Shown piece by piece: positions 5,214-63,602 of a DNA stretch of 64,000 bases; positions within the stretch are counted from its first letter, which is position 1; each line of letters starts with the position of its first letter. Source of the stretch: a virus (Duplodnaviria; Heunggongvirae; Uroviricota; Caudoviricetes); the IMG/VR virus record IMGVR_UViG_3300045597_000172. One strand, given 5' to 3'. The translations under genes and the position numbers were made by a program. The notes below the pieces were generated by a model that had not been told where the DNA came from, ran no database searches, and saw nothing but the letters and a program-made list of their open reading frames with translations.

Positions 5214-5230
5214 CAAAAAGGAGACTCGTT

Positions 5231-5449
5231 ATGAAAACCATACTGATCAGTAAAATTATACAAACCCCAATCTTAGGATTGCGTGACGGAGAAGAAATAC
5301 TTAATCATCTTACAAAAAACAATATCAAGAATCCAAAATTAGTAATTAATTCTCATATGACCGGACGCTTTCTGCCCCACTTTAAAAAGCTGTTAGACGC
5401 AGCTTTAAAAAATAAAGAAATCGATTCATACGAAATCAAATTAAAATAA
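5231..5449 (+). CDS. hypothetical protein
   Basis: AAGGAG RBS, 72 aa. Confidence 0.7.
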   Translation: MKTILISKIIQTPILGLRDGEEILNHLTKNNIKNPKLVINSHMTGRFLPHFKKLLDAALKNKEIDSYEIKLK

Positions 5450-5466
5450 GAAAGAATGATTACCAA

Positions 5467-44716: not shown

Positions 44717-46588
44717 TCACTTTTTAATTGGATTTGCAAAATGATAATGATTCCAATAAATACCGAATGAATCACCGATCGTCGATTCATTGACACCACC
44801 ATCACCGCCGGCTCCACCTTCATTAATCATTTTAGTACCAGTTCCATGATAATCTTCAAGTAAAATTGCCGCATGATCATCACCCGAACCATCTGTAAAA
44901 ATAACTGTTCCAGCTTTGGCTTGTGATTGGTCAACTTCTTTTAAGTATTTACCTTGTTTCATGTAATCATTCATCGAACCGGTAAACCACATTTGATCCG
45001 GAACAGAATAACCGGCTAACTTCAATACCAACCAGACATAGCCAGAACAATCCGTTTGTCCATCTCGTTTAACCTGACTAATCGATGAAATACTCGTATA
45101 CGAACCAGAATTAGAAACATCCGTTCGGTTCGGTTGTGAATAAGTAAAATACCCTAATAAACTTTCAGCCGTCGAAACTATCGAACTCGTATCACCAGTA
45201 TTAGACGAACCACTACATAGAGCCGCATTAACGCCCTCTGCTAACGCCGAATTAGATGTTGCAGTTGATTCACTGCCACCGCCTAAAAGTGACGCTAACG
45301 CGCTGTCATTAGCATGTACACCACTAAGATTAAATGTTGCATACGCTTGTTGAGCATAAGCCTCACGCTTAGGAGCTGATCCATCAGGATCAGACGTATA
45401 TGCTTGCCCAGCTTCAAATGCTGATAAATAAAATCTTAGAGCCGCATCCGCAGGCGAAGACGAACCACTTAAAATTGTTGGTGAAATTGTCTTATACGCA
45501 GAAGCCCACATATCACTTTCGCCCAATTCCTTTGCCATCATCAATAATTGCAACTCCAAACTGCTTGAATCCATGTTTTTTGATTTTGCAAATGACTCTA
45601 ATTCAGTTCGACGGCCACCCGTCCATTGCATCAATCCTTTACCACCATCACCAGAGCCATTAAGAACACTAGTCTGAAATCCTGATTCTTGCGCCATGTT
45701 ACCCATTATTCCGGCAATTGCATTCCCAGAAAAACCTAGACTTTGTAACTTTGCCGCAACAGCTTTCGCGTTTGTATATTGCGTACTACCCGACTGTGTC
45801 CAAGCCGCACCATCAGCACCGCCTGACGTTGCACCGCTATAACTTTGAGATCCATTGTTACGTGTCGTACAGACAGAACCAGAATCCAGTGGCTTATTAC
45901 TATTGTAAACATACATTCCGCCTAACAACCCGGCACCTAATGTTGACGTCAAGGCCACATGCAAAATTATACGAGCAGTCTTTTTCTTAATCGTGATGTT
46001 AGACTTTTTACCTAACTTAATAATGCCAGAAGTCGCTTTATTGGTAAGATTTTCATAACCGCCCTTTAACTTACCACCCGCAGCCTTAGCAGCTTTCGGT
46101 GCATTGTTGCTTAACGATTTCAATCCAGATGTAATCCCGGATGACTTCTTATCACCATCTTGATGATCGCCACCGCCATTTAAACCAGATTGTCCACTCG
46201 CGTTTTTTGCACTGTCAGGTAAACCCGATTGCATTGCACCCGTACTGGCATCAGAAGCTGCCGGATTACCCGTTTCACCAACACCCGCATTCTTATTATT
46301 ATCAGTTAAAGGTGATGCCAAACTTTTAGCGCCGGATTGTGCAGCAGATCCCGCTGGACTGTTAGATAAAGAATTACCGATCCGATCTAAATTTGGATCT
46401 TTACCAGTACGCAATCCGTTACCTGAACCTTGATTACTTCCATGATTACCGTTACTAGGTAATTTAGATTTTGCATCAGACAGATTCTTATCACGTCCAC
46501 TATCGGCTTTACCAAGTTTGCCAGCCGCATTTTTCAAATCTTTCGAATTATCATTGGCCACCACCGTCACTCCCTTCAATTTAATCAA
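44717..46588 (-). CDS. VirB1-like conjugative cell-wall hydrolase: TM + phage-tail-lysozyme + NlpC/P60 (CHAP-like)
   Basis: AIAGIMGNMAQESG...GLMQWTGGR lysozyme; TDCSGYV ... HAAI peptidase; true start probably GTG near 46564. Confidence 0.85.
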   Translation of the reverse strand: MIKLKGVTVVANDNSKDLKNAAGKLGKADSGRDKNLSDAKSKLPSNGNHGSNQGSGNGLRTGKDPNLDRIGNSLSNSPAGSAAQSGAKSLASPLTDNNKNAGVGETGNPAASDASTGAMQSGLPDSAKNASGQSGLNGGGDHQDGDKKSSGITSGLKSLSNNAPKAAKAAGGKLKGGYENLTNKATSGIIKLGKKSNITIKKKTARIILHVALTSTLGAGLLGGMYVYNSNKPLDSGSVCTTRNNGSQSYSGATSGGADGAAWTQSGSTQYTNAKAVAAKLQSLGFSGNAIAGIMGNMAQESGFQTSVLNGSGDGGKGLMQWTGGRRTELESFAKSKNMDSSSLELQLLMMAKELGESDMWASAYKTISPTILSGSSSPADAALRFYLSAFEAGQAYTSDPDGSAPKREAYAQQAYATFNLSGVHANDSALASLLGGGSESTATSNSALAEGVNAALCSGSSNTGDTSSIVSTAESLLGYFTYSQPNRTDVSNSGSYTSISSISQVKRDGQTDCSGYVWLVLKLAGYSVPDQMWFTGSMNDYMKQGKYLKEVDQSQAKAGTVIFTDGSGDDHAAILLEDYHGTGTKMINEGGAGGDGGVNESTIGDSFGIYWNHYHFANPIKK

Positions 46589-46664: not shown

Positions 46665-46693
46665 AAAAAAAACAAGGAACAAATCGTTCCTTG
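46665..46693 (-). terminator. terminator downstream of giant RNAP gene
   Basis: CAAGGAAC-GATTT-GTTCCTTG + T run on minus strand. Confidence 0.8.
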
Positions 46694-46709
46694 CTCAAAC
46701 TAACTATTA

Positions 46710-49700
46710 TCACAACTCAGGACCTTTGACAGTTGCCTGTGCTTTCGTGCCATTGTCAGATGCAACACCAACTTGATGATGCTTATCATAAAACGATACC
46801 GCATTTTCAATCGCATTCTGACGGATCCGATTCAACTTGTACTTTTGTAAATTACCACGAACATCATGTAACGTTTGTGCAACCGTATCATTAGTTGTCA
46901 TCTGTACATAATATGCATTCGTTAACTTACGTTGATTCGTAACACCATCAAATAACGAAGCACCAACATTTTCTTGATACTCTTTGCCAAGATCATTGAC
47001 CCTCGAAATAAAATCATTCCGATAATCAGTTGGATTTTCATTAGCTTTAACTAAACCATTCTTAGTCTTATCACTAACCGCATTCTTCGAAACCGCAGTC
47101 TGCAAAAATTCCATACCAACTTGACCGTTAACTGTACCACCCGTTACATTATGAACCGTAATTGGTGACCAGTAATTACCGTTAAGAATCTCAGCAACCC
47201 GATCGTAACTACTTCCAACTGAACTCTTAGCAGTATTAACCGTTTCAGTAGTTCCGTTATCAACGCCCTGCCATTTTCCAGTCAACGTATCACCAGCAAT
47301 TTCAACCGAAGTTGGTTTTGGTGTTTCGAGACCCTGAACAAGCTCGGTACGAACTTCCTCAAGCAACCGGCCCGTAACGTTTTGACCTTTAGTTGCATCA
47401 AAAACATCACCACCAGAAACATCTTTTAACGACATCCCTGCGCCATAAACACTGCCACGCTTACTTTCAGCTTCAACCAACGAAGCATTACCAGTATCAC
47501 GCAATTTCGTATAGACATACGTATTTTGCGAAAACTTAGCCATCATCCCGGCTTTCAAGACGCTTGGTGAAACAGTATTCCAAGCCTTATCATCAAAGTT
47601 CTTAACCGCATCTGCCGCAGACTTCCATGGATTCTTTGCACCATCAGGTTCAATTTCCAAAATCTTAGATGCCTGAACATCATCCTTAAACATCAATGCT
47701 TTTGCATAACTGAAATATTGTTCAACCGAATTAAAATTACGAGGATGATCATCATGAACGTGAATATCATGAACATCATCATCAATGTTAACCTGTGCCT
47801 TAAATGGCTGAGCATTCAAATTAGAAAATGGAGCATATGCACCATAAAAAGCAATCGTTTGAGTATCTTTATTTTCAACCATACCATAACGGCCAGAATG
47901 ATCAACCCGAAGATCACGTTGATACATCTTATCTGCTAACGACTTAGCTTGTCGAATTTCACCATCCGGAATTTGTGGAGTTGCAGTACGTGATACATTT
48001 GTCTTAGCCTTCAATTCAGCTAATACTGCATGACTGCTTGGCAAACCAGTCTGTTGACGCTTAGACTCCGTATCATCACGGTGCTGCAAATTCAATTGGA
48101 ATTCATCCATAACTTCACCAACCATTGAATCCTGCTTAGCCGCATACTGTTGACGTTTTACTTGTTGATGAACTTTATCTTGATACGTATTGAATTTTTC
48201 GACATTCTTCATATTGTTTTTAACAATATTTGTCAAAACTTCTTGCGTACCCGCATCAGGAACCGCTACAAATTTAACTTCATCCGGATTACCCAAACTA
48301 CGTGACAATGCAGAATTAAGAACAACCGTATCGTCTTTGACGTTATCACTAACATTGATATTTAACGCAACATCACAATTATCATCGTTCGTCTTTAACT
48401 GCAACTTATTCCAATCGTGACGATTTCCTAACGAACCATTTTCGATTCCAAGCTCATTAGCAACCGCCTTAGAAATAATCACAGTGTTAAATGGAACATC
48501 ATCAGCAACATTCGGATGATTTACAATCGTACTCTTAGCAACATCTAACTTATCCGCCATAGTCAACGTATCAACTACTGAATTCAACGAATTATCACGC
48601 TGTGATAGACTTAACTGCTTATTTAACTGGTCAGCAGATAAATTACCAAACACGGATTCTCGAATATATGAACCCGAATCACCAAACAAGTTAGCCGGAA
48701 CATAATCTTCCTGATCTTGCTTAGTTAATTCTTCAGTAATACCCGCAAAACCATGCATGTTAATCTTAGCCGTAATTGTTGCAAATCCACCGTCTTTAGT
48801 AGCATCTTCGATTGAACGAATTTCCTTAGTTGGACTCTTAGGGTCAACTAAAACATCAGCTAAACGTTCAAAGTTATGACGATCAACACCAAGGCCCATT
48901 CCATTGTCTTTGTCATTGTACAAGAAATCCATAATCTCAACAAATTCATCACGCGTGACTTTATCTGGTTGATTATCTTTTTCCGCTTTCAACATTGGAA
49001 CTTGAACCTGACGAATGTCTTTACCTTGCTTATCAGCAATTCGCTGACGCAAATCTTTCATGAAATCATCACGAAGATATGGCTGACTAGCTTCATCAAC
49101 AGTCGTCCTAAACTCAGTTAACTGCTGTGCATTCTTAGGATCAATCTTAACACCAATTGCATTTGCAACATCCATGACTTGGTCATCAGTGAAATCATTA
49201 CTTAAAATACTCTTTGGATATTCCCGTAATGTCTGATCTGTACCCGGAACCTTATAGTCACGTAAAGCTGCGGCACGTAAAGCAACATCCGACGGATCAT
49301 TACCCAATCGACCTTGACTTTCCGGTCCCAACAAGGCAAACGATGGATAAACTTTATTTGGAAAATTACCACGTAACAATTCGCCAAGTGGTTCCTGCAA
49401 AATTTCAGAAACACGACCAGCCATAACTGGATCACGTTTAATCGAAAGTACCTTTTGCGTACCAGCCTGACCGATTGCAGCCGCAGAATGCATTCCCAAA
49501 TTACTACTATTCATCATCACAGCCGTAATCTTTTGTTGCGTCGAACCGGGAACCCCTGTCATATCACTCTTAATCTTAGTAGCACGCTGTACAGCTAACA
49601 AGGTATCATGCAAACCAGTCAATTCACGTTCATAAGCATTACGTGCATTAACATCTAACTTACCATCGACAACCTGAGCTTCACCCATTGCGCGTACTTC

Positions 49701-52700
49701 ACTAAACAACGGTTTCTTCATGTAACCATCAATCAAGCCCGTAACAGCACTTGATTTACCTTTAGCACCTTCGTTAGCAAATTTCATCAATGATGCACGT
49801 AACGTATCTTCACTCGTATAATCAACACCATCATTCCGCAACATCGAAACTTCACCTTGACTAATTTGAACCTCACCATTAGCATCCCGGCTAGTTTCAA
49901 AACCACGCGTACGTTGAACAATTTCATCAACAACTTGACGTGCGCCACGATAATCACCGTTGTCATAACGAGTTTTAATTTCGTTATCAACTAACATCAA
50001 CAAGAAATCACCGTCATTAAAATCGGGATGTCCATCCTTATCAAGTTTCGTTAACTCACCATTTTCATCAAACCATGAATCATCAACGACATCTCGACGC
50101 ATACTCTCCAAAGCCTGCTTCCGGAAACCGGGATCTAAGAAATTACCACTGACAACATTGCCATCTCGACCAGTTACATCATAATCATTGCTTGTATTGA
50201 CCGCCATTTCAACGATTTCAGCATTGATATTCAACAATGTAGACTTTTGAGAATTATCCAACATCCAACGGTCAACTTCCATGATTGAACCAAGTTCACG
50301 TTGTGCACCCGCATCTGGCATAGACGTCAATCCCAAGTTATCACCATCAAAATCGGCATCCATTAATGCGGCCATTACTGGACTAATACGAACACCCGTA
50401 AGTGCATCATTAATCTTAACTCGGAAGCCTAACGAACCTTGTTCACGCCAAACTGGATCACGATGGACATGTAAATATCCCCAATCAGAATGACCATCGA
50501 CATGTGCCATGCCATCTTCACCAGTTACAAAATTCAAACGTTTAGCAATTGCTGGTGAAATTTCAATAACATCCATTGGCAATTCGGGATTAGCAGAAAC
50601 CTGACTTGTTACAGAATCTTCAGCATAACCACCTAAAACATAATTACGGAAGAATCCATTTTTAGGACTGCCACCACCAAATGCAAAACGATTAGCTTCA
50701 GCATTAATCCGACTAACAGATCCTTGAATATTAAGTTCCTTAGCCAATTGTTCATTAATCTTAGCTTGTACCGCATCATCACCGTGAGCCAAATCAGCAT
50801 CTTTAGTAGCCTTAACTAAGACTTCGTATTGTGCCAAGTTAGTTCCCAAATTCTGATACAAACGGTTAAAGTCAGAAATCACAGTGGTATCATCCATCGC
50901 AATTGTATTAACCCGCATCCGTTCTGGCAAAATATACAACGAATTTGTACGTTTTCCACCAGCAGTCGTTACCGTAACACCCTCTGGTAATCGTAAAACA
51001 CCACCGTCAGGTAATTGCTGCAAGAAATCTTCACCCGCATTGTATTTGTCCGGTGCCATCATATCAGTATTTGGCGCAATTGCACCCGTACGACGAGAAA
51101 CTGAACGTAACGTACGTAAGAAAGTTACCGATGCTGGCTTCAACTCACCATTTTGATCAAGGCCAACAAATTTTTGCGAACGTGCACTAGAAACCTTATT
51201 AGAAGCAGATTTACTAAACGTCATATCTCGATTAATCAATCCATGATAAGAACGCTTGATCTTCTGCAAAACATCCGGCTGAATAACATATTCAGTTTCA
51301 ACTGTTTCACGCGCAATCTTATCATAATCGGCTTGTTCAACTCGATCAGGTAATAAATCAACACCCATTGCAAGCATCGATTCACGCAACGTTTGCAAAT
51401 TCTGGCCATTACGACGATGCCAATTACCAACAATATGTGCACCCTTAGCATTATCACCGTTATTCAATAAAATACTCAACTTACGACCAGTATCATCATT
51501 TGGCTTATCATATAACGTAACCTTATGGTTAATCGTTTGGTTCGTAATAATTAACTTACCAGAATTAATCGTAGCGTTAGTAGCAACAACTTCGCCAGTT
51601 TCACGATATTGTCCGTCACCATCAACCCGCACACGTTTATATGTCATTGGCTTCGAAGATGGACGAGTCAGATACGTATATCCAGTAGCACCGTTATTAC
51701 GTGAAATTTGACTCATCTCGTTCATAACAACTTGCAAATCGGGATGTTGCTTAAACAACTCTACAATATCTAATAATCCATGCTTATCTGCTTCTGCTAA
51801 ATCCATATCAGGATCAATCACATGCGAAATCGTTGCCTTATTACCACCGTTATCAGAAAGTTTATCACCAATTGTTAACGAACGATAAATTGGAAGACCG
51901 TTTCCATCAACCTGATCAGAAATTTGATGCGCATCGGCAAATGCCTTTGAAACTACCAAACCATCTTCCATTGAAAATGCACCAAGCGCCATCGTAGCTA
52001 CTTTAACATCATCAATAGTTTCATGACCCTTAATTGCTTGTTCCTTTGAAACTGGTTGACGGTCACCGGCATTTTTCAAAGAATCATCGAAAAACTCAGT
52101 ATTTTCAATTGGTGTACCAGATGCAACACCAACAATCTTGCCATTTGCATCTTTCATATATGAACCATCAGCATTACGAAATGCATTAGGTAAAACTCGG
52201 CCGTCATCAGTTACTTGGGCACCCTCAACTAAATAAGTCAACAACCCAAACATCTTACCTTGTCCAGTCATATTATCAGAAATTAACAAATTACCAGACT
52301 CATGTGCAACTTCACCAACACCATGACCACCATACACACTAATTGGATCATGCAAATAACGAATAACATCCAACGTAGTTTCTTTAGCATCCTGCGGATT
52401 TGTCAATAATCCATTAGCTTTCATTTCAGCTAAGCCATCTTCAAATCGTTTCATGTACGAAATAACTTCAGTTGTCTTAGTAGCCGCTAATGCAGCATCT
52501 TCCAAACGTACCGCATTCAATTCAGTTTCACGTTTAGCCTGACTCATTTCATCAACGGTATTATTAAGCGATGATTCTTCTACACGATTACCAAGAACTT
52601 CATTATGAAGTAACTTATTCATAATCGTATTAGAGTTATAACGGGTAATCGTACCGACATCACGTGTAGAAATGATTGTATCAACCGCTTGCCCAACTTC

Positions 52701-55700
52701 ACGGAATAACGCTTGATCATATCCCATTACACGTAACCGATTAAAATGACCTAAGCCGTTACGTTCTTCATCACGGAAACTTTCTTTACTCCAATTGCCG
52801 GATGCATCACGGTCAGGATTCAAAATCCAACCACGATAACGAGCTTGATACGTAAATTGTCCAGACGTAACATCCTGTCCATCAAATCGGTTATACGCCG
52901 TCCGAATTAAGCCATCATGATCAGGTGCAAAAATTTGTCCAATCGTACCTTCAACCGGCTGATAACGAACATCATTTGTACCATCTTTGTCAGCACGATA
53001 AACACGACCCTTTGCAGTTGTTTCATAACCGTGTTTATTAATTGACGTTGGCTTAGCCGTGGCTTCATCATACTTTTTATAAGTAGCACCACCACGTTGT
53101 TGTTCATGAGTTGCGGCCTTATAAACCGGAACCTTAGCTACAAAATGAACAACACCTTGCGCATCAATCTTAATATCATCATTACCAACAATAACCCCAC
53201 GAGTTTCTAATCGTGATTTTACAATTTCCAACGAACGTGCTTTAAACTCGTTAGGTGAAACATCTCGAATTAACCGTGAACCATCACGACTAAATGCAGA
53301 CGGATTAGGGTTTTCAGCAGGATCAAAACTAAATTTCTTACGTCCTGCTTTAACATCTTCCATATATTGACGTAACTTGAACTCATCACTATTAGGATCC
53401 TGATCCGCAGCTCGTAAATCATCAATCGTCATTGCTGTTGACTTATTAAAATCAACATCTGGAGTTGCATCAGCCGACTGGTAACGCTCACCAGCTTTAA
53501 CTGAATCAACATACGCACGTAATCGTTTTGCATTCGGAGAATCAAACTGAACTGCACGTTCCTGAACCGTTTCACTGGCATAGCTATTATCACCAACTAA
53601 ATTATCTGCATATTCACTCTTAGAAACGGCCTGTGCCATCATAAACGCATACAGTGTCGAATTAGCACCAGCTTCAGTTTGCTTAATAACTTGCGTCAAA
53701 TTCAAATCAGAATTTAATTCAAATTTGCTAAGTAATTCATTATGCAAATCAAGATAAGCATGTTGTGCTTTAGTCTTAGCCATCGGATCTGAAATCATTC
53801 CCAATCGTGCATATTGCTCACGATAAGACATCTTATTCAAATTGTCATCTAAGTCTAAGCCATCACCTTCAACATCCGACAAAATTGTCTTAGCATCGTC
53901 AGAATCAAGTAACAATGATTTCATCTTACTGTGCAATGCCATAATTTCTTGCTGTTCATAACCTTTAGATGTTTTAAACTTAGCCGTTTCCATATACTGA
54001 TGTTCATAATCGGACAATGATAAGTCCATGTAATCGTCATGCAAAACAGCATTCTTAACCGGCGCTTTACCAAACGTCTTATTCATCTGCTCAACTAAGC
54101 CATCAAACACTTCTAACCGACGAGCTTTTAATACCGGATCAGTTACATTTGCAACCAACGCTTGTCGATTTTGAATTAATTCATGATCATCAACACTATT
54201 TTGGTCAGCCGTAGCAACTAATAAGCCATTTTTAAATGCAGTCAATACTAATTTCTGGCTTTCTAAATCAAGTACATCACGACGAACCTTTTCAGTTCCA
54301 TGACCAGATTCCGATAATGTAACATCCGTAACATCATTTGACAAAATATGTTTAAACGTCTTCTGTGCTTGAGCATACGTCCGATTTGAATTATCTTGAT
54401 CCGGACCCATCAACATCTTCAAATAATTAATACGAGCATCACGATAGGCAACGTTGATTAATTCATTCGCATCATCGCCATCGACTTGATATGGATCCAT
54501 CCGTGGATTAGTTGTAGCTGTATCCACACGGTCATCACCAACAATTGCACTGCGTAAATCCAAATGAATTTTACCCTGAACATCATCTTGTACAGAACTC
54601 GTAGCAATTTCATCACCGTCTGTACCATCAATTACCTGAACTGGAGCAATTTCAGCATCAACCTTACCCAAATTAATTTGTGCTTGATAACTATTTGAGT
54701 TAGAAGAACTTAAACGATTAACAGTTTCAATCTTTGCATCTGGTAAATACGACTGTGTACCCTTTGATAAGACGTTTTTATTAATTCCCAACAAGTTGGC
54801 AATTCCAGCAACAGCTAATTTATTCTTTGTGACTTGATCCAAACCAACATAACGTGCTTGAGCAACCATTCGTGAACGTTGCACATCAGGTACATTATTA
54901 GCACCGAAATCATCACGACGTGGTTTGAAAGCTTCCAATCGACGTTCACTATTCCGGAAAAGAACCGTTCCGTCATTTTTATGAACAATTGGTGACATTT
55001 CAGATCCGTCTTTATTGATTGACGACGCAATGGCATGCTGCATTTCTAAGCCAGTACCCATCTCAGCCTCAGTTTCGAATGGCAAACGAGTCAATTCAGG
55101 ACTCCAATAAATACCCTCACGCGTACGGATTTGACCAGTCAAGTACGGATGTTGCGGATCAACTAAGGTAATCAACGCGGCCGAATTATCATTCAAACGT
55201 AAAGCAACTGAATTGTCCGAACCCTGTACAACACTGTAATCAATCCCTGCATCATGAACCAACGTCAAAACCGTAATCATTGTTTCAACATCTGATGGTG
55301 AAACTTCATGAATCTTACCATCAGCACTACGTTGTCCAATCAAATCAACCGTAGCTTTATCAGAACCGGCAATCAATACAGAATCACTAAGACTATCTGT
55401 CAACAACGATTGCAAACTTTTACGACGACCGGCATTCGGCATTACTGAACCCAACGCGGTCATTAATTCATTAACCGAAACCGGGCTTTTTTCATCGATG
55501 TTAGAATTACGCCACCAGTAACGACTCTGTGTAACACCTTTAGGCGTATAAGCATACTGATGATGGTCTGAACTTGGTGCAAAAACGTATTCTACACGCG
55601 TTTGAGATGGTACTGCTGCAACATTATCCGACGAAGTCTTATCAGCATTAGTTTCGGCATCAGCCTTTTTCTTCTTTTTAACATTTTGGTGATTATCACT

Positions 55701-56687
55701 AATTCCAAAATCTTCGGGACGAACAACAGTGGCATCTTTACCGGTGAATTGTTTAATATCAAACATTCCATTAAACGTACCGCCATGAACTTCACCATCA
55801 ACCGTTGGAGCAGTAGCAAACGCAATCCCTTCATCCGCATTCATGAACATTGTCTGATTGCGTTTTTCATAGACAAACCGTTGCTTACCGTTAGCAGAAC
55901 GTTCAGCATGACTAGAAACCTGATCAGCCATTCCCAACATACTGTAATACAACCCCTGTTTATTTTGATCAGGTACCGTAAATCCACGATCATTCTTAAT
56001 AGTTTTTCCATTGTCGTCATATTGAGCAAGCGTGTATGCTTGTGTATTCATTGGCAAATCAGCTACAAACCGAATTTTATCAGCACCTAACCGATAAATA
56101 TCATTTCGTAACCATGTACTATCACCGTGAGCCTTATGATCTTGAATAAGTTTTGCATAAGCTGGATTCTGAGCAACAAGTTCTTCACGTCGCTCTAATC
56201 CCTCTTGATATTTAACATTCAAAATAGCACGTGCCCAAACCAAATCTGCACCGTCAGCCATTCCTGAATGAGCTTCAACATAACCATGTTGGCGAATCCG
56301 ATCACGTAAAATATTCTCAAACGCATCTTGAACTTTCGCCCATGGATTTGTAGGAACGCCATCGGTCTGTGCCGAACCTTTGTACGTCATATCACCTAAG
56401 TTATAACCATCACTGCTTAAATCTTTAGGACGATGTCCGGTCAATGCAACAACGTATGGTTTTAAACCGTTTGATTGAGGATCCTGATTTGGTCGCCAAT
56501 CATGCAGCATCCGAATCTGTCCACGACCAATTGCATCCAAGCTCGTCATTATCTTTGGCGTAGCATAACCGCTTGATTGAATATCAGACAGTCGATGCTG
56601 ATTTGTACCAATATATCGGTCAGCCGTATACGGACGGTCTCCCCATGAATAAGTTGAACCTTTTATATTTTCTGCCAAAATAGTCAC
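46710..56687 (-). CDS. 3325-aa polyvalent protein: SLOG/YspA + single-chain fused beta-beta' two-barrel RNA polymerase + degenerate barrel duplicate + NADAR
   Basis: Collinear beta motifs FSMEDGLVVS, GDKLSDNGGNKATIS, DLQVVMNEMSQISRNNG, then beta' motifs YILPERMR..SDFNRLY, KNGFFRNYVLGG, HRDPVWREQGSLGF, MDADFDGDNL (50340-50360), trigger loop SAAAIGQAGTQKVLS; N-terminal LTGHRP..SGMADGADLVWA; C-terminal FSNL..SVEQY..AKF..LVEA..GQNVTGRLLEEVR. Confidence 0.92.
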   Translation of the reverse strand: MTILAENIKGSTYSWGDRPYTADRYIGTNQHRLSDIQSSGYATPKIMTSLDAIGRGQIRMLHDWRPNQDPQSNGLKPYVVALTGHRPKDLSSDGYNLGDMTYKGSAQTDGVPTNPWAKVQDAFENILRDRIRQHGYVEAHSGMADGADLVWARAILNVKYQEGLERREELVAQNPAYAKLIQDHKAHGDSTWLRNDIYRLGADKIRFVADLPMNTQAYTLAQYDDNGKTIKNDRGFTVPDQNKQGLYYSMLGMADQVSSHAERSANGKQRFVYEKRNQTMFMNADEGIAFATAPTVDGEVHGGTFNGMFDIKQFTGKDATVVRPEDFGISDNHQNVKKKKKADAETNADKTSSDNVAAVPSQTRVEYVFAPSSDHHQYAYTPKGVTQSRYWWRNSNIDEKSPVSVNELMTALGSVMPNAGRRKSLQSLLTDSLSDSVLIAGSDKATVDLIGQRSADGKIHEVSPSDVETMITVLTLVHDAGIDYSVVQGSDNSVALRLNDNSAALITLVDPQHPYLTGQIRTREGIYWSPELTRLPFETEAEMGTGLEMQHAIASSINKDGSEMSPIVHKNDGTVLFRNSERRLEAFKPRRDDFGANNVPDVQRSRMVAQARYVGLDQVTKNKLAVAGIANLLGINKNVLSKGTQSYLPDAKIETVNRLSSSNSNSYQAQINLGKVDAEIAPVQVIDGTDGDEIATSSVQDDVQGKIHLDLRSAIVGDDRVDTATTNPRMDPYQVDGDDANELINVAYRDARINYLKMLMGPDQDNSNRTYAQAQKTFKHILSNDVTDVTLSESGHGTEKVRRDVLDLESQKLVLTAFKNGLLVATADQNSVDDHELIQNRQALVANVTDPVLKARRLEVFDGLVEQMNKTFGKAPVKNAVLHDDYMDLSLSDYEHQYMETAKFKTSKGYEQQEIMALHSKMKSLLLDSDDAKTILSDVEGDGLDLDDNLNKMSYREQYARLGMISDPMAKTKAQHAYLDLHNELLSKFELNSDLNLTQVIKQTEAGANSTLYAFMMAQAVSKSEYADNLVGDNSYASETVQERAVQFDSPNAKRLRAYVDSVKAGERYQSADATPDVDFNKSTAMTIDDLRAADQDPNSDEFKLRQYMEDVKAGRKKFSFDPAENPNPSAFSRDGSRLIRDVSPNEFKARSLEIVKSRLETRGVIVGNDDIKIDAQGVVHFVAKVPVYKAATHEQQRGGATYKKYDEATAKPTSINKHGYETTAKGRVYRADKDGTNDVRYQPVEGTIGQIFAPDHDGLIRTAYNRFDGQDVTSGQFTYQARYRGWILNPDRDASGNWSKESFRDEERNGLGHFNRLRVMGYDQALFREVGQAVDTIISTRDVGTITRYNSNTIMNKLLHNEVLGNRVEESSLNNTVDEMSQAKRETELNAVRLEDAALAATKTTEVISYMKRFEDGLAEMKANGLLTNPQDAKETTLDVIRYLHDPISVYGGHGVGEVAHESGNLLISDNMTGQGKMFGLLTYLVEGAQVTDDGRVLPNAFRNADGSYMKDANGKIVGVASGTPIENTEFFDDSLKNAGDRQPVSKEQAIKGHETIDDVKVATMALGAFSMEDGLVVSKAFADAHQISDQVDGNGLPIYRSLTIGDKLSDNGGNKATISHVIDPDMDLAEADKHGLLDIVELFKQHPDLQVVMNEMSQISRNNGATGYTYLTRPSSKPMTYKRVRVDGDGQYRETGEVVATNATINSGKLIITNQTINHKVTLYDKPNDDTGRKLSILLNNGDNAKGAHIVGNWHRRNGQNLQTLRESMLAMGVDLLPDRVEQADYDKIARETVETEYVIQPDVLQKIKRSYHGLINRDMTFSKSASNKVSSARSQKFVGLDQNGELKPASVTFLRTLRSVSRRTGAIAPNTDMMAPDKYNAGEDFLQQLPDGGVLRLPEGVTVTTAGGKRTNSLYILPERMRVNTIAMDDTTVISDFNRLYQNLGTNLAQYEVLVKATKDADLAHGDDAVQAKINEQLAKELNIQGSVSRINAEANRFAFGGGSPKNGFFRNYVLGGYAEDSVTSQVSANPELPMDVIEISPAIAKRLNFVTGEDGMAHVDGHSDWGYLHVHRDPVWREQGSLGFRVKINDALTGVRISPVMAALMDADFDGDNLGLTSMPDAGAQRELGSIMEVDRWMLDNSQKSTLLNINAEIVEMAVNTSNDYDVTGRDGNVVSGNFLDPGFRKQALESMRRDVVDDSWFDENGELTKLDKDGHPDFNDGDFLLMLVDNEIKTRYDNGDYRGARQVVDEIVQRTRGFETSRDANGEVQISQGEVSMLRNDGVDYTSEDTLRASLMKFANEGAKGKSSAVTGLIDGYMKKPLFSEVRAMGEAQVVDGKLDVNARNAYERELTGLHDTLLAVQRATKIKSDMTGVPGSTQQKITAVMMNSSNLGMHSAAAIGQAGTQKVLSIKRDPVMAGRVSEILQEPLGELLRGNFPNKVYPSFALLGPESQGRLGNDPSDVALRAAALRDYKVPGTDQTLREYPKSILSNDFTDDQVMDVANAIGVKIDPKNAQQLTEFRTTVDEASQPYLRDDFMKDLRQRIADKQGKDIRQVQVPMLKAEKDNQPDKVTRDEFVEIMDFLYNDKDNGMGLGVDRHNFERLADVLVDPKSPTKEIRSIEDATKDGGFATITAKINMHGFAGITEELTKQDQEDYVPANLFGDSGSYIRESVFGNLSADQLNKQLSLSQRDNSLNSVVDTLTMADKLDVAKSTIVNHPNVADDVPFNTVIISKAVANELGIENGSLGNRHDWNKLQLKTNDDNCDVALNINVSDNVKDDTVVLNSALSRSLGNPDEVKFVAVPDAGTQEVLTNIVKNNMKNVEKFNTYQDKVHQQVKRQQYAAKQDSMVGEVMDEFQLNLQHRDDTESKRQQTGLPSSHAVLAELKAKTNVSRTATPQIPDGEIRQAKSLADKMYQRDLRVDHSGRYGMVENKDTQTIAFYGAYAPFSNLNAQPFKAQVNIDDDVHDIHVHDDHPRNFNSVEQYFSYAKALMFKDDVQASKILEIEPDGAKNPWKSAADAVKNFDDKAWNTVSPSVLKAGMMAKFSQNTYVYTKLRDTGNASLVEAESKRGSVYGAGMSLKDVSGGDVFDATKGQNVTGRLLEEVRTELVQGLETPKPTSVEIAGDTLTGKWQGVDNGTTETVNTAKSSVGSSYDRVAEILNGNYWSPITVHNVTGGTVNGQVGMEFLQTAVSKNAVSDKTKNGLVKANENPTDYRNDFISRVNDLGKEYQENVGASLFDGVTNQRKLTNAYYVQMTTNDTVAQTLHDVRGNLQKYKLNRIRQNAIENAVSFYDKHHQVGVASDNGTKAQATVKGPEL

Positions 56688-57604: not shown

Positions 57605-57634
57605 AAAAAACTTGCAGGAAAATCCCACAAGTTT
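57605..57634 (-). terminator. probable terminator
   Basis: AAACTTG..GGA-TTT-TCC..CAAGTTT + T run. Confidence 0.65.
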
Positions 57635-57644: not shown

Positions 57645-58520
57645 CTACCACCAACCTTGACTTTGCCATGCCGCTTTTGCAGCATCCCAACTACCGTAAC
57701 GACTCTGCATATACTGAGTAGCCACACGTTCTTGATTAGCAGCCGAATAATCACCGTGTAAATAACTCTTATCTAACTGATAACGTCCATAATAACGACC
57801 ATTCTGTGCTGTATACGATCCACCAGATTCACGTTGTGCAATCCATTCTTTAGATGCACTTGAATTAGTTGTCGAAACAGTGTTCGTATTAGTATTTGAA
57901 GTCGTCGTTGCACTTGGTGTAACGGTATTCGAAGTACTTTGAGCTGGCGCAGTTGACGCAATACTTGGCTGTGCTACGGAACTTGCTGGTGCAGCAGACG
58001 ATGCTACACTACTTGTTGGAACAACCGCACTTGCAGTTGATGCTGTACTTGATGCCGGTACGGTTGACGTTGCAACACTCGTTGTCGCTTCAACAACCTT
58101 TAATTTCAAAGTTTGATTAATATAAATTACATCAGACGTTAAACCATTTGCAGCTTTTAAATTTGCAACAGTTGTTCCAAATCGATTTGCAATCGATGAT
58201 AATGTATCGCCCGCTTTAGTTACATACGTTGTTGCATTCGTATCAACCGCACCAGACGTTGTACCATCGATTTTAACTTGCTGTCCAACATAAATTAGAT
58301 CTTCATTACTAATTCCATTTGCAGATGCTAATGCCGATACCGTAGTATTCGCATTCTTAGCAATTGTCGATAAATTCTCATTAGCTTGTACAGTATGTAC
58401 CGTATCTGCATTCGCTGAAACACCGGTAGCTGCAACCCCCGCTAATCCCGCTACCAAACCTACACCTAACAGGGCAAGCTTATGTGACGAACCCTCGTTC
58501 ATCCTTTCTGCTGTACTCAT
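57645..58520 (-). CDS. secreted 2xLysM protein with aggregation-promoting-factor (Apf) lysozyme-like C-terminus
   Basis: Signal peptide; HTVQANENLSTIA and YVTKAGDTLSSIA LysM; S/T/A linker; AKEWIAQRESGGSY..GRYQL..RYGSW..GWW. Confidence 0.9.
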   Translation of the reverse strand: MSTAERMNEGSSHKLALLGVGLVAGLAGVAATGVSANADTVHTVQANENLSTIAKNANTTVSALASANGISNEDLIYVGQQVKIDGTTSGAVDTNATTYVTKAGDTLSSIANRFGTTVANLKAANGLTSDVIYINQTLKLKVVEATTSVATSTVPASSTASTASAVVPTSSVASSAAPASSVAQPSIASTAPAQSTSNTVTPSATTTSNTNTNTVSTTNSSASKEWIAQRESGGSYTAQNGRYYGRYQLDKSYLHGDYSAANQERVATQYMQSRYGSWDAAKAAWQSQGWW

Positions 58521-58632
58521 TGGACCACTCCTCTTTTTATTATCAAAAATATACTTATTACATTATCTACATTAACACTTATCAACAATAATTCCATAAC
58601 AGCAATGTCACAATTAGATTACAGACTGTAAC

Positions 58633-58664
58633 AAAAAAAGACCTGAAAATTTTCAAGTCTTTTT
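58633..58664. terminator. terminator
   Basis: AAAAAGAC.TGAAA-AT-TTTCA.GTCTTTTT. Confidence 0.7.
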
Positions 58665-58681
58665 AAAAGTTCTAAAATTAT

Positions 58682-61255
58682 TTAACGATTGCTTGATGAA
58701 GCACTTGTTGCAGAAGAAGATGGTGCACTATTTGAATTCGAAGATGCACTTGATCCATTTTGCGACGAACTACTTGCAGAAGAACTAACCGAAGATGAAT
58801 TACTACTACTGTTTTGGCTAGAACTACTTTGAGAGCTTTCACTCGATGAACTAGAACTTGGTTGTGACGAAGATTGTGATTGCGTTTGATACATAGGAAC
58901 CGCAACGGTCTTAACATTGTTATTATTTGAACTGTTATGAACTAACATTGAACCAGTTGCAAAACCACCAGTTAATCCAAGTAACATCAACAAGACTGAA
59001 ACTCCTAAATATCCATTACGACGACGTTTGCTATCACGATCAAGCTTATCCTCAGTATGCTTCATATCTTCACGAAGTAAGTTTAATTCCTTACGATGAC
59101 TTTCATCACGTTTATCTAACTTCTCATCATACACTTCGACTTGCTTATTCATCTTAGCTTTAAGTTCATCACGTTCCTTAGTTACCTTAGTCAATTCACC
59201 TTGAACTTGTCCAACAGCTAATTGCTGAGTTGAAGTTGCCTGTGATTGAAGAGTTTCCAATTGACGTTTGTAATTTTCGGCATTTTCAGCCAATGCAGCC
59301 TTATGATTATCCTGTAATTCCTTAATTCGTTCATTAAGAACTTCGACAGTAGTATCATGACGAGCAACATCTGCTTGATCGGCCACACGTTTGTTTTCAT
59401 CATCACGAGATTGTTTGGTATATTGTTCCAACTCAGCAATCTTATTACGATGTGCAGTTTCCAAAACGTTCTGAGCTTTGCGGAATTCCATTGCACCTTG
59501 TTCCATGACTTCCATGTAAACTTTAGATGCCGCCGTTTGAGCATACTCTTGACTGTTATGCTTAATTTCCGTAATATTATTTGCAATTTCTTGACGTTTA
59601 GCTGCCACACCTTGCTGAATAATATCATTTTTATGCTGATTCAATTCCACTCGTTTCTGATTAAACTGCGCTTCAACCTCAACGATTGCCTGCTGACGTG
59701 CATTCTCCAAATCACTATTAAACTGATCTTCTAACGTATCAAGCTCATCTTTAACTAAATCTTGTGCTTGAAGACGTAAACCTTCATCGTCATTCAAATC
59801 AGACTGCAATTCTTTTAACGTTTTACGGTTTGACTTAATCTGAGACCCATCTTCTTGCACTTTATTATGCAGTGCATCCAACATACTAGAACGTTGTGTT
59901 TCAAACCATTGTCGTAAACGAGCCTTACGTTCTTTTAAGACTGACTCTAATTCAGCATTAGCTTTACGACGTAGTTCATTTTCATGATGAATTCGTCCAG
60001 TTGGATCATTAGTTTCATCTGCTAAAGGAATTGGCGTTACAGACAATGGCTTCAAATACGCATCTAAAAATTCACGGTCAGAAACTGAAACTTTCAAATC
60101 AGATAATGTTCTAACAGATGACGTCATAATCGCATTATCGGCTTCAAGGTCATCCCTTGAAACTGTTTCGACGTATGGATTTTTCTTTTTAGGTGTTGGA
60201 TCGGCCTTTGGCGCAACCTGTGATTCAACTGGCTCAACAACAGTCGATGCAGTAGACTGCGTTGCCTGAGAGACTACTGCCGGTTGTGAAGTTTCTGATT
60301 CTTCTGATTCAACATTACCAGACTCAACTGCCTCAGACTCCGTACCATCTTGAGAATCGTCAGCATCGTCCTCAGCATCATTCAACTCATCAGCAGCAGA
60401 AATACTAAAACCTTGATCCGCATTGTCACTAGTAACAGTTCCAGCCGATTGCGGATCTGTTTCACCATCAGAATTTGCAAACGATGAAATCGTTGAATTA
60501 GATGCCTTACCATCATCATCTTCAAATTCACGCGTTGCAGCCATTACGTTCGGATCAATCGTACCCGTTTCATTATCATCAAGTTTCAAAGGATCAGACG
60601 TAGTTGGAACATTTTCATCAACTTTCAATACATCATTTTCAACTTTGAAATTAAGTTTACCATTAACATATGCCCACCATTGTGCCATCGGAAGACGAAC
60701 ATCTGTCAGTCGCAAATGAAGTTCATCATTGTCAATGTTCAATAATCCAACCAACCAACCTTTACTATACTTGGCAAAAGTTGGAAAATCATTCAAAACT
60801 TCAAACGCATCATGCATTGGTAATAACGTAATATACTGCTGATCTAAACTTTCAGTTGTCACAACTGGTAAAAACCCAGAAGCACCTGAACTGGTTTTTA
60901 AACCAACACTAACTTGGCCAAACTGATCTTTATTCTCACGATTGCCCAATCCACTATCTTCAAGGGTTGCTTCATCCATAACAAACACTGGATACTGCGG
61001 ACCGTCGCTAAATTGTAACGCCGTCGCACGAACAAAGTCCTTATCTGAATTAACAACTGATTTATCACCATGTACCGCATCAATAACAGTTGCTGGTACA
61101 GACTCACTAATTTTCATTTGCGAAATTAATGACTTTTTCTTACGACGGGTATGTAATTTACCCCGTGATTTCTTTTCTGATCCAACATCAGACTGATTTG
61201 TATCTGATTCAGGATTCTTGTTCGCTTTCTTATGGAACTTAAAAATTCCCATCAA
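58682..61255 (-). CDS. large acidic/coiled-coil membrane protein with Ser-rich extracellular tail
   Basis: Acidic linker, long coiled coil, TM YLGVSVLLMLLGLTGGFATG, C-terminal poly-Ser. Confidence 0.8.
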   Translation of the reverse strand: MMGIFKFHKKANKNPESDTNQSDVGSEKKSRGKLHTRRKKKSLISQMKISESVPATVIDAVHGDKSVVNSDKDFVRATALQFSDGPQYPVFVMDEATLEDSGLGNRENKDQFGQVSVGLKTSSGASGFLPVVTTESLDQQYITLLPMHDAFEVLNDFPTFAKYSKGWLVGLLNIDNDELHLRLTDVRLPMAQWWAYVNGKLNFKVENDVLKVDENVPTTSDPLKLDDNETGTIDPNVMAATREFEDDDGKASNSTISSFANSDGETDPQSAGTVTSDNADQGFSISAADELNDAEDDADDSQDGTESEAVESGNVESEESETSQPAVVSQATQSTASTVVEPVESQVAPKADPTPKKKNPYVETVSRDDLEADNAIMTSSVRTLSDLKVSVSDREFLDAYLKPLSVTPIPLADETNDPTGRIHHENELRRKANAELESVLKERKARLRQWFETQRSSMLDALHNKVQEDGSQIKSNRKTLKELQSDLNDDEGLRLQAQDLVKDELDTLEDQFNSDLENARQQAIVEVEAQFNQKRVELNQHKNDIIQQGVAAKRQEIANNITEIKHNSQEYAQTAASKVYMEVMEQGAMEFRKAQNVLETAHRNKIAELEQYTKQSRDDENKRVADQADVARHDTTVEVLNERIKELQDNHKAALAENAENYKRQLETLQSQATSTQQLAVGQVQGELTKVTKERDELKAKMNKQVEVYDEKLDKRDESHRKELNLLREDMKHTEDKLDRDSKRRRNGYLGVSVLLMLLGLTGGFATGSMLVHNSSNNNNVKTVAVPMYQTQSQSSSQPSSSSSSESSQSSSSQNSSSNSSSVSSSASSSSQNGSSASSNSNSAPSSSATSASSSNR

Positions 61256-61600
61256 CTACTCCTTCTTTCCATTTATTTTATCCAATTTGCGCAGCCGGTT
61301 AACAGGACTAAATTTAATCCGTAAGCGAGCAGGAATCACAATTGACTTACCTGTCACCATATTCCGACCATGACGTGGTGCTCCTTGAACAATATCAAAC
61401 CGGCCCAATCCGTATTGAGAAAGACTAATTGACTCCCCATTACTCAAATGATCAGCAATTCCGGATACCGTTCGCTTAACAATTGCAGTCACTTCATTAC
61501 TCGGAAAATCCAAATCTGCAACAATTTCAGCAACTAAATCTGAACCCGTTATTCTCTTTTTTTCAGCAGAGCCACGAGTTGATGCTTCATGTCCTGACAA
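61256..61600 (-). CDS. second HU/IHF family DNA-binding protein
   Basis: GLGRFDIV..APRHGRNMVTGKSIVIPARLRIKFSP. Confidence 0.85.
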   Translation of the reverse strand: MSGHEASTRGSAEKKRITGSDLVAEIVADLDFPSNEVTAIVKRTVSGIADHLSNGESISLSQYGLGRFDIVQGAPRHGRNMVTGKSIVIPARLRIKFSPVNRLRKLDKINGKKE

Positions 61601-61722
61601 CGATTAACAACTCCTCTCATGCAGTTAAAATCACTACACAGAATTTCAAACCACCTACCAATCATCAAATAATCATCTCTAAATTCAAATTATTTATAAA
61701 GTAACTGTTTTGAACATCTCCT

Positions 61723-61751
61723 AGTATAGCAGAGACTACGGAGAGAGACAA
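61723..61751 (-). promoter_or_regulatory. sigma70-type promoter for HU2 operon
   Basis: TTGTCT-17 nt-TATACT with TGn extension. Confidence 0.65.
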
Positions 61752-61875
61752 GTGGTTACGAAAAACAATTTACCACAAATGGATAATAAAAAAGACATTC
61801 CCAGATTTAACTGAAAAAATGCCCTTAAAAAATATTACAGAACAGCCTGTTTATCAAATAAGTTAGGTGACAAAC

Positions 61876-61905
61876 AAAAAAACTCGTGATGAAAACATCA
61901 CGAGT
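61876..61905 (-). terminator. terminator after virD4
   Basis: ACTCGTGATG-TTTT-CATCACGAGT + T run. Confidence 0.85.
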
Positions 61906-61921
61906 CTAATATAAAATACGG

Positions 61922-63082: not shown

Positions 63083-63602
63083 CGAATCGTTTTATTTATT
63101 AATTACTGAGATATTCAGAAAGTTGTGAAATTATTTTTCGTTTATTAGCAAAAGTTCTATTAAACAACTAAATCTAACATCTCAGTTTCTTAAAATTTCA
63201 CGTAATCGTAACTTACGCTCTGCTAATGCAGCACTCTCATTACAAGACGTGACTGACTATATGTCAAAGTCGGTATCCCGGCCCCACCTATTTTTCGCGC
63301 ATGCCATAAACTTGCACCGCTAACGAGGACGCCATCCTCTAGTCGATGAACGTTATCCGGTAAATTAATTACTACGGACATTCGTAACCATACAGACCCT
63401 TTTTAATAACAACTTAGAACAGTAAATACTGCTTTTATTTCATCATATTGTCATCCGAACAATTTTTTCTGCTTTCGCACCGTCACGCTTGTCGTTTCCA
63501 ACTACGTTGTGGACATTCGGCTTTAAGGTCTTTCGAGGTATTAAACTGGTGTTGGTACTCACCCATTACAGATAAGCAGAGGTTCTTTTATAATAAGATA
63601 AA
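63083..63602 (-). ncRNA. group I self-splicing intron (IA-like, about 520 nt, no ORF) inside virD4
   Basis: R element UCAUCGACUA (63340-63349), S element UGACAUAUAGUC (63255-63266), P7 GACUA/UAGUC, P3 CACCAGUU/AAUAGGUG, P7.1 GAGGA/UCCUC; removing 520 nt restores the frame; boundaries uncertain by 5 nt. Confidence 0.8.

Follow-up and report, generated by a model that had tools for sequence, protein, structure and literature searches.

A single-chain beta-beta' RNA polymerase module encoded behind a coupling protein gene in a putative conjugative element

Conjugative elements of bacteria are taken to rely on the RNA polymerase (RNAP) of the host, in the donor as well as in the new host. Does such an element ever carry an RNAP of its own? 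This question is raised by a 64,000-nucleotide stretch of DNA filed as IMG/VR virus record IMGVR_UViG_3300045597_000172 (the whole stretch analysed, hereafter the window), in which an open reading frame (ORF) at positions 46710-56687 on the minus strand encodes a 3325-aa polyvalent protein, designated P0001. The protein is recorded on a metagenomic contig of 236,971 bp. An initial annotation, made from the letters of the window, had proposed that P0001 is an RNAP with the beta and beta' parts fused in one chain and that it is encoded by a conjugative element. In this study, we examined P0001 by profile and structure searches and by the conservation of its residues, and we surveyed its relatives and their gene neighborhoods. 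We regard it as very likely that P0001 carries a real two-barrel RNAP module; the role that such a module would play in the element is weighed below.

The ORF starts with GTG, has a ribosome-binding site (AGGAAG) just 5' of the start, and runs as a single uninterrupted frame of 3325 codons with no internal stop, as had been claimed. From the N-terminus, the protein consists of a SLOG-like region, an unassigned region, the fused beta-beta' RNAP, a second unassigned region, a NADAR domain and a C-terminal tail. All fifteen motif strings quoted in the initial annotation are found at their places, those of beta preceding those of beta'. On the beta side these are FSMEDGLVVS (from residue 1571), GDK..GNK (1607), the SRNNG block (1650), the GRK block (1733) and RESMLAMGVDL (1768). 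The beta' side begins with YILPERMR (1918), SDFNRLY (1938), KNGFFRN (2009) and SVTSQV (2025) and continues with HRDPVWREQG (2075), MDADFDGDNL (2109), RATKIKSDMTG (2368) and SAAAIGQAGTQKVLS (2401). This ordered set is far beyond chance.

Pfam gave P0001 only a sub-threshold match to an RNAP family (RNA_pol_Rpb1_2, E 0.0085). A word-index search recovered 16 relatives of 2000-3800 aa, and we used three profiles: A1, comprising 17 sequences over residues 1450-2620; A2, extended upstream; and A3, comprising 61 diverse members. When searched against the PDB, A1 matched beta' chains from bacteria, archaea, plastids and eukaryotes at E 1e-11, colinear with E. coli beta' 239-494. A3 matched beta'/Rpb1 chains at E 4.6e-26 over E. 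coli beta' 240-807, in an alignment that begins at the PPDLRP motif, takes in NADFDGD and SGARGS and reaches the end of the bridge helix. On the other side, A2 aligned with beta subunits over the ED and GDK..GNK motifs (E 5e-4); its 25 matches consist almost entirely of second-largest RNAP subunits. Judged by these profiles, the resemblance of the beta side to RpoB appears weak but specific.

An AlphaFold2 model of aa 1450-2620 had a predicted local distance difference test score (pLDDT) of 92.5 and a predicted template modeling score (pTM) of 0.88, and a Foldseek search of the PDB with this model returned at least 500 matches, all of them RNAP largest subunits. We also aligned this model exhaustively to 48,161 chains of known structure. 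Model residues 330-1169 aligned with Rpb1-type subunits of Pol I (Z 16.4), vaccinia virus (16.0), Pol II (15.3) and Mycobacterium tuberculosis (beta', 13.0), and with the largest subunits of jumbo-phage enzymes (AR9 beta', Z 12.9; phiKZ gp55, Z 11.2). Single-chain two-barrel enzymes were matched as well, namely QDE-1 (Z 12.7, over both barrels in model residues 1-1137), and, from Thermus phages, P74 gp62 (10.2) and P23-45 gp96 (9.2). Model residues 1-312 aligned with beta/A135 chains at Z 8.7-9.7, and isolated double-psi beta-barrel domains matched model residues 571-681 at Z 7.6-8.4. The matches also included the DP2 subunit of PolD (Z 8.4) and phi14:2 gp66 (Z 6.3).

A second model (ma5731c01dc64), covering aa 930-1560 with a pLDDT of 83.7, extended the picture upstream. 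The best match of aa 1136-1560 was residues 25-828 of the Xanthomonas oryzae beta subunit (Z 11.5), followed by the N-terminal beta subunit of AR9 (9.3), vaccinia Rpo132 (8.4), plastid beta (8.4) and Pol III C128 (8.2); the eight best matches and those at ranks 9, 13 and 24 are RNAP second-largest subunits or isolated beta1/beta2 domains. In this model, aa 1136-1560 correspond to the N-terminal half of beta, to which two blocks conserved throughout the family (aa 960-1195 and 1235-1420) belong at least partly. Because the second model identifies this half, the RNAP module spans about aa 1136-2620: it is present as the initial annotation had claimed and larger than was assumed there.

The module can thus be divided into three parts, all on the minus strand, as are the other parts of the gene given below. 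The N-terminal half of beta (aa 1136-1560; positions 52008-53282), delimited by the second model and its structural alignments, contains the beta1 and beta2 lobes and a fork-like TGQGK..GL segment. The beta-like double-psi beta-barrel, which has no flap insert (aa 1561-1900; 50988-52007), is supported by profile A2, structural alignment and residue invariance, and it holds the conserved residues E1574-D1575, K1609, K1617, R1663, N1665 and R1735. The beta'-like part (aa 1901-2620; 48828-50987), recognized by profile A3, structural alignment and Foldseek, holds clamp-core motifs, the catalytic barrel, a funnel motif (GAKGS), a bridge helix, a trigger-loop-like hairpin and C-terminal helices. Profiles, two confident models, fold searches and the invariance of catalytic residues together support the proposal of a single polypeptide with both double-psi beta-barrels. 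RNAP barrels were recovered by profile and structure searches on the beta side and on the beta' side alike; the Foldseek comparison that had been suggested as a check recovered largest subunits.

To assess the active site, we scored residue conservation in the 61-sequence alignment of diverse relatives, in which the mean column identity is 20%. Two-barrel polymerases share eight universal residues: the DxDxD triad, the Asp equivalent to Rpb2-D837, two Rpb2 lysines, and R446 and P448 of Rpb1 (PMC2919709). Their counterparts in P0001 (D1575, K1609, K1617, R2076, P2078, D2112, D2114 and D2116), among which R2076 is equivalent to Rpb1-R446 and P2078 to Rpb1 P448, are invariant in 61/61 sequences, as are R1663, N1665, R1735, K2309 and G2310. 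The catalytic triad D2112-F-D2114-G-D2116 lies at positions 50340-50354, and it is intact together with both beta lysines, as the initial annotation had stated. At the Rpb2-E836 position, 59/61 sequences have E or D, an acidic residue that is missing in YonO-like enzymes and in RNA-dependent RNA polymerases (PMC2919709). Against the 89%-identical orthologue in locus L032, the ratio of nonsynonymous to synonymous substitution rates (dN/dS) is 0.073 over the whole protein, 0.035-0.05 across the RNAP module at a dS of about 0.8, and higher, 0.08-0.19, in the terminal domains. The RNAP module is under strong purifying selection. The initial annotation had called P0001 an active transcription enzyme; residue conservation and the dN/dS of 0.035-0.05 fit that description, and from them we infer that P0001 is probably a catalytically competent DNA-templated RNAP.

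The bridge helix is predicted as one long kinked helix (aa 2346-2391; 49515-49652) on the basis of a hidden Markov model (HMM) alignment to the beta' bridge helix and of model helices 897-927 and 929-942. At a distance of 26 aa, a trigger-loop-like helical hairpin follows (aa 2396-2431; 49395-49502), formed by model helices 947-966 and 971-982 and bearing a conserved TQxxLxxK(H/R) motif, which in P0001 consists of T2410, Q2411, L2414, K2417 and R2418. Among the 61 sequences, T is conserved in 59, L and K in all 61, and position 2418 is H in 50 and R in nine. The register of the hairpin fits the pattern of cellular trigger loops, which we take to be TQ-x-x-(M/L)-x-x-x-H. To judge from the model and the motif, the hairpin may be homologous to the cellular trigger loop; of the trigger loop named in the initial annotation, the conserved motif and the predicted hairpin stood.

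P0001 resembles cellular RpoB and RpoC in the colinear motifs of both subunits and in the presence of a bridge helix, and it shares structural similarity with jumbo-phage RNAPs (AR9 beta' Z 12.9, AR9 beta N-terminal subunit 9.3, phiKZ 11.2 and 6.9). Unlike both of these, it is one fused chain within a larger multi-domain protein. It also departs from the cellular core in having neither the flap (sandwich-barrel hybrid motif, SBHM) nor zinc-binding cysteine clusters, and in the short distance of 26 aa between the bridge helix and the trigger-loop-like hairpin. The ED-to-GDK spacing is only 34 aa in P0001 (family median 28, range 18-103); therefore, no flap/SBHM, the docking site of sigma region 4 or TFIIB, is accommodated. 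The single cysteine of the protein, C2771, lies outside the RNAP module, and thus there are no beta' zinc sites. In contrast to the cellular core with its alpha2 and omega, P0001 has no recognizable partner of the alpha, omega or sigma type among the 28 of about 71 window ORFs that were scanned against Pfam; the earlier claim that the window holds no alpha or sigma gene stands for this part of the ORFs.

How, then, does the enzyme relate to the known single-chain polymerases? YonO of SPbeta is a processive, promoter-specific DNA-dependent RNAP, a single chain of about 100 kDa without flap or sigma, in which no homology was detected outside the barrels and which has no trigger loop (PMC5467207). 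P0001 is like YonO and QDE-1 in having both barrels in one chain, no flap and no sigma. It differs from YonO in its beta N-terminal half, clamp-core motifs, funnel motif (SGARGS), HMM-detectable bridge helix and trigger-loop-like motif, and its family differs from YonO-like enzymes in keeping the Rpb2-E836 acidic residue (59/61). Going by the models, the RNAP of P0001 has far more of the multisubunit core than a minimal enzyme of the YonO type. An assignment of P0001 as a YonO orthologue was rejected, since the homology to cellular enzymes is far more extensive and the family had no tblastn match in the 50,697 phage records searched.

A closer counterpart is NCgl1702, a beta::beta' fusion of 2169 aa from Corynebacterium glutamicum that was noted by Iyer, Koonin and Aravind in 2003 (cited in PMC2919709 and PMC7824862). 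NCgl1702 was credited in 2010 with about 40 conserved residues and no known function (PMC2919709), and NCgl1702-like RNAPs were described in 2021 as lacking the SBHM (PMC7824862). Compared by description only, P0001 and the NCgl1702-like proteins are alike in being giant, uncharacterized single chains with beta preceding beta', without SBHM/flap, and in being associated with mobile elements; the size of 1800-2200 aa common in our family and its plasmid- and ICE-like contexts (ICE, integrative and conjugative element) also fit this class. P0001 differs in being 1100-1500 aa longer and in carrying SLOG-like and NADAR domains, and the passages that mention NCgl1702-like proteins do so in passing and draw no link to conjugation or to a coupling protein. 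A cluster search of the AlphaFold database did not return NCgl1702; its best matches were single-chain "DNA-directed RNA polymerase" entries of 1052-1262 aa.

Two further groups share the architecture of P0001 rather than its fold. The virion RNAP of phage N4 (vRNAP, gp50) and phi14:2 gp66 are giant proteins that combine an RNAP module with accessory domains, enter the host with the DNA and make the first transcripts; it is by analogy with them that delivery of P0001 is proposed. They differ from it in being phage proteins delivered from the capsid and not through a conjugative type IV secretion system (T4SS). Moreover, N4 vRNAP has an unrelated, T7-like fold, and gp66, a two-barrel QDE-1-like enzyme, is only weakly similar (Z 6.3). 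An N4-like RNAP was rejected as the identity of P0001, all fold matches being of the two-barrel type and none of the palm/fingers/thumb type. Polyvalent proteins of conjugative elements are likewise very large multi-domain proteins encoded among T4SS genes, and they combine nucleic-acid polymerases with counter-defense enzymes. The initial annotation had also stated that polyvalent proteins of mobile elements are reported to include RNAP domains, and this has to be corrected: the survey by Iyer et al. 2017 (PMC5512222) describes RNAP modules of the N4-like (T7-type) kind, whose fold is different, and confines them to N4-like phages and prophages; for conjugative polyvalent proteins, it gives Toprim or PrimPol primases as the polymerases. 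A two-barrel RNAP in such a role is not described in that survey.

Full-text literature searches found no paper that joins a two-barrel RNAP to conjugative elements, to synteny with a coupling protein or to polyvalent proteins. The initial annotation had left open whether the lineage is undescribed. It is not wholly so, given the known NCgl1702-like class; what appears to be undescribed is the niche in conjugation, the nearly complete core (beta lobes, bridge helix and trigger-loop-like hairpin) and the fusion to SLOG and NADAR domains.

The family is large and widespread. In 1.84 billion representative proteins, profile A1 matched 403 clusters (50% identity) with E<=1e-30 and, at the looser cut-off of E<=1e-10, 668, so that at least 403 clusters is a lower bound of the family size. 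Most members are 1800-2200 aa long, and none of the ten clusters looked up has a database name. A megablast of the gene against 72,556 plasmids gave no match, relatives being found there at the protein level only: tblastn detected distant relatives, all annotated as hypothetical, on plasmids of Staphylococcus, Rhodococcus fascians, Gordonia and Streptomyces. Those from Staphylococcus and Rhodococcus are MOBP-typed. The relative on Staphylococcus plasmid SAP020A has 1807 aa, and the plasmid also carries a lysozyme+CHAP gene; that on R. fascians pGS01 has 1912 aa and lies directly behind a coupling protein gene. Against 50,697 phage records, among which the presence of the SPbeta record was not checked, tblastn found no member of the family. 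A scan of species-representative genomes yielded 29 loci, in Microbacteriaceae, Actinomyces, Bifidobacteriaceae, Lachnospiraceae, Oscillospiraceae, Ligilactobacillus equi, Muribaculaceae and Paludibacteraceae. Prevalence scans, which scored two candidates per genome and thus give lower bounds, found the gene in 1/301 genomes in the family of Ligilactobacillus equi (G001) and in 1/301 in that of Plantibacter flavus (G002), in each case the seed genome only; these values fit the sporadic distribution of a mobile element.

Of the 22 loci in which the upstream DNA spans at least 4 kb, drawn from the genome-scan, plasmid and metagenome loci, 17 have a long orthologue (1250-1500 aa) of a type IV coupling protein (T4CP) upstream on the same strand, often ending 30-200 nt before the polymerase start. 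The T4CP orthologues score above 800 bits between Bacillota and Actinomycetota, and that of locus L004 was confirmed by Pfam. A lysozyme + CHAP/NlpC hydrolase and an HU-like gene recur in related loci, and other members adjoin genes for a single-stranded DNA-binding protein, a NERD protein, an excisionase-like helix-turn-helix protein and a D5 primase-helicase. On the strength of this synteny, the polymerase appears to be a conserved component of one conjugative plasmid/ICE lineage in Bacillota, Actinomycetota and Bacteroidota.

Side observations on the same loci concern additional neighbors. A conserved protein of about 750 aa is encoded upstream of the T4CP gene in 12 loci and another of 470-800 aa downstream of the RNAP gene in 14 loci (both L003-L025 and L002), and neither has a Pfam match. 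In L005 (Ligilactobacillus equi), two overlapping ORFs (1650-4067 and 4043-5515) together make up the T4CP orthologue, which suggests a frameshift or a decaying element. Loci L029, L030 and L031 have clear T4CP orthologues and a weak match to the RNAP profile downstream; they may hold a divergent polymerase or a replacement gene.

The window itself shows the same arrangement. The genes for a T4CP, an HU-like protein, an 857-aa protein, a LysM protein, small membrane proteins, the polymerase and a hydrolase follow one another on the same strand; after the hydrolase come a Phd-like gene (seen in the orthologous locus L032), a class A penicillin-binding protein and GT4 glycosyltransferases. L032, a close relative on a 165,766-bp scaffold, has an identical gene order. 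The T4CP gene (61922-63995, minus strand) is cut by the end of the window and was identified by the Pfam families TraG-D_C, T4SS-DNA_transf and TrwB; its two pieces (63588-63995 and 61922-63070) align to the uninterrupted 1264-aa orthologue in L032. The HU-like DNA-binding gene (61256-61600, minus strand; PF00216, E 1.2e-16), also present in L032 and L004, lies between the T4CP and RNAP genes. Directly downstream of the polymerase is a bifunctional cell-wall hydrolase gene (44717-46588, minus strand) with lysozyme (PF18013, E 2.9e-29) and NlpC/P60 (PF00877, E 1.5e-6) domains, a combination typical of Gram-positive transfer regions. The T4CP, HU-like, LysM and hydrolase genes on the same strand support the claim that P0001 is encoded by a conjugative element. 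By its gene content, this appears to be a large Gram-positive conjugative element with the RNAP gene inside the transfer region. A phage origin of the locus was rejected, as it has the T4CP and the conjugative hydrolase and the ORFs scanned include no capsid or tail genes.

Outside the RNAP module, P0001 carries two assignable domains. A NADAR domain (aa 2945-3120; 47328-47855) is recognized by PF08719 above the cut-off (E 6.2e-27, spanning aa 2950-3116), by TIGR02464 (E 8.9e-23) and by phrog_1017 (E 8.3e-27); NCBIfam and PHROGs found nothing else in the protein. At about aa 70-330 (55698-56480) lies a SLOG/YpsA-like domain with the motifs TGHRP and HSGMAxGADLVWA. Pfam gave no match above threshold in this stretch of P0001 itself; two aligned homologues match PF06908 (YpsA) at 2.8e-30, and Pfam results for P0008 and P0011 agree. 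We call the assignment probable because it was made through alignment to homologues. In an analogy to other mobile elements, the SLOG/YpsA-like and NADAR domains may be nucleotide/ADP-ribose-processing modules used early against host defense.

We consider it likely that P0001 is a fused beta-beta' RNAP that acts on the DNA of the element in connection with its transfer. The protein would be made in the donor alongside the transfer machinery and would work on the element's own DNA; most probably, it would be handed to the recipient with the single strand. There, it would make the first RNAs, either early transcripts or primers for the complementary strand, without the polymerase and sigma factors of the host. 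We put the chances that the polymerase is actually translocated at somewhat below even. Polyvalent proteins encoded beside T4SS genes have been predicted to be transferred with the DNA (PMC5512222), and SLOG, NADAR and Macro modules of phages have been predicted to serve early or virion-delivered counter-defense functions (PMC9503650). In its fullest form, the proposal would make P0001 the conjugative counterpart of a virion RNAP: the T4CP would feed a sigma-independent enzyme through the T4SS with the single strand, and we advance this tentatively. Equally tentative is its corollary that the incoming DNA would be transcribed or primed before the host polymerase recognizes it, while SLOG and NADAR disarm defenses based on NAD or ADP-ribose.

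Several observations weigh against these proposals. No significant profile alignment covers the trigger-loop-like segment. The position that we presumably can equate with N458 of E. coli beta', which we take to be the ribose-contacting residue, is Asp or Glu in 56/61 sequences, and therefore the sugar selectivity of the enzyme is uncertain. A k-mer search of 25 intergenic regions of the window for a repeated promoter-like motif found nothing above three occurrences; thus, a dedicated promoter set is not in evidence. No feature in the sequence marks P0001 as a T4SS substrate, and adjacency to the T4CP gene is also compatible with a role on the donor side. Finally, in five of the 22 loci with enough upstream DNA, no T4CP gene is within reach.

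A rival explanation is a polymerase that serves only cells already holding the element, donors or established transconjugants, as the element's own transcriptase for transfer or cargo genes, much as YonO serves the late genes of SPbeta, and that never leaves the cell. YonO and the non-virion RNAPs of jumbo phages transcribe the genes of their elements where they are made (PMC5467207, PMC7824862), the element is very large (236,971 bp) and carries NrdD, an ATP-dependent ligase and methyltransferases, and a protein of 3325 aa would be an awkward substrate for a T4SS. The missing promoter motif, on the other hand, counts against such a transcriptase, too, and a co-transferred protein fits better because of the fixed position behind the T4CP gene in three phyla and the fusion to early-acting SLOG and NADAR domains; we judge a purely resident enzyme to be somewhat unlikely. 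Less probable still is that the enzyme is the primase of the element, making short RNAs on the transferred strand from which synthesis of the complementary strand starts, a role that would overlap with delivery. It would fill the niche of the Toprim and PrimPol domains in other conjugative polyvalent proteins, whose common polymerases are primase domains, and plasmid primases travel with the DNA (PMC5512222). QDE-1-like two-barrel enzymes resemble the model at Z 12.7, and no primase was found among the 28 window ORFs scanned against Pfam. However, the full apparatus of beta lobes, clamp, bridge helix and trigger-loop-like hairpin is better suited to processive transcription than to short primers, the inspection for primases covered only part of the element, and a D5-type primase lies near one related locus.

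It is also conceivable, though very improbable, that the module is a catalytically silent relic serving as a scaffold or DNA-binding platform, or that it polymerizes something other than RNA, for example DNA, like PolD. The structural match to PolD DP2 (Z 8.4) and the acidic residue in place of Asn at the N458-equivalent position point in this direction. RNAP largest subunits match far better (Z 13-16) than PolD does, and a silent relic is hard to reconcile with catalytic residues that are invariant in 61/61 sequences over a deep divergence (20% mean column identity), including the equivalents R2076 (Rpb1-R446) and P2078, and with a dN/dS of 0.035-0.05. The RNAP acting in connection with transfer thus remains our preferred explanation.

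If the assignment is right, a plasmid/ICE family that crosses phyla carries its own nearly complete, single-chain, flap-less and zinc-less enzyme of the cellular type. It would be a minimal beta-beta' core provided by nature, intermediate between YonO and the cellular enzyme and still possessing beta lobes, clamp, bridge helix and a trigger-loop-like element, and it would bear on the evolution of the multisubunit core and on initiation without sigma. Establishment and host range would find a testable explanation in expression or priming that does not require promoter recognition by the host, and the delivery of a virion-type RNAP, if true, would explain near-identical transfer cores across three phyla with incompatible promoters. 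The enzyme is also a possible target for blocking transfer, including that of Staphylococcus plasmids with distant relatives, and a single-gene, sigma-independent RNAP functional in Gram-positive bacteria could become an orthogonal expression tool.

The rest of P0001 and of the window yielded fewer assignments. A block of about 90 aa (aa 450-540; 55068-55340) is conserved throughout the family, being covered in 114-153 of 160 family proteins in a jackhmmer search. No domain was assigned to the stretches aa 361-935, 2621-2944 and 3121-3325: ESM Atlas look-ups of aa 361-935 and 2621-2945 gave no usable match, and Pfam found no additional domains in the long variants P0023 and P0014. Nor did Pfam match the neighboring 857-aa protein. 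Searches of the whole window with Rfam at gathering scores and for tRNAs found nothing, and the counts of sigma-70-like and terminator-like signals in the window equal the shuffled expectation.

The T4CP gene of the window is interrupted by a 514-nt insert (63089-63602) that is absent from L032; residues 748-879 of the L032 T4CP map to 63998-63603 and residues 878-1264 to 63088-61925. No Rfam family matched the insert at gathering scores. The HU-like gene recurs beside the T4CP-RNAP pair in loci of Bacillota and Actinomycetota (L032, 4748-5092; L004, 15639-16418), and its product could be an architectural or template-coating partner. A terminator-like hairpin with a 12-bp stem and a T run, assigned by consensus match only, lies directly 3' of the polymerase stop codon (46670-46696, minus strand), and it is one of three alike 12-bp-stem hairpins on this strand, the others following the LysM gene (57608-57634) and the T4CP gene (61880-61907). 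The polymerase and the upstream ORFs for small membrane proteins may form a transcription unit of their own. Further along the same-strand cluster, the genes for the class A penicillin-binding protein and the GT4 glycosyltransferases (40132-42291 and 37497-39218, minus strand) keep their order in L032.

Positions 1-32200 of the window form a block of about 45 tightly packed genes on the plus strand, which include genes for NrdD, an ATP-dependent DNA ligase, two orphan DNA methyltransferases, a non-specific endonuclease, a DHH phosphoesterase and a CAAX protease. Together they make up a self-sufficiency set of the phage-like kind, here in an apparent conjugative element of at least 237 kb. Another peculiarity of the locus is its cysteine content. 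P0001 has one cysteine (C2771) in 3325 aa, where about 19 would be expected from the 0.56% found in 28 other window ORFs, and the products of the neighboring 857-aa, HU-like, LysM and T4CP C-terminal genes (57645-63070) have none. The long relatives P0002-P0026 mostly have near-zero cysteine contents as well, P0015-P0017 (0.55-1.03%) being exceptions; this depletion may reflect passage through the cell envelope.

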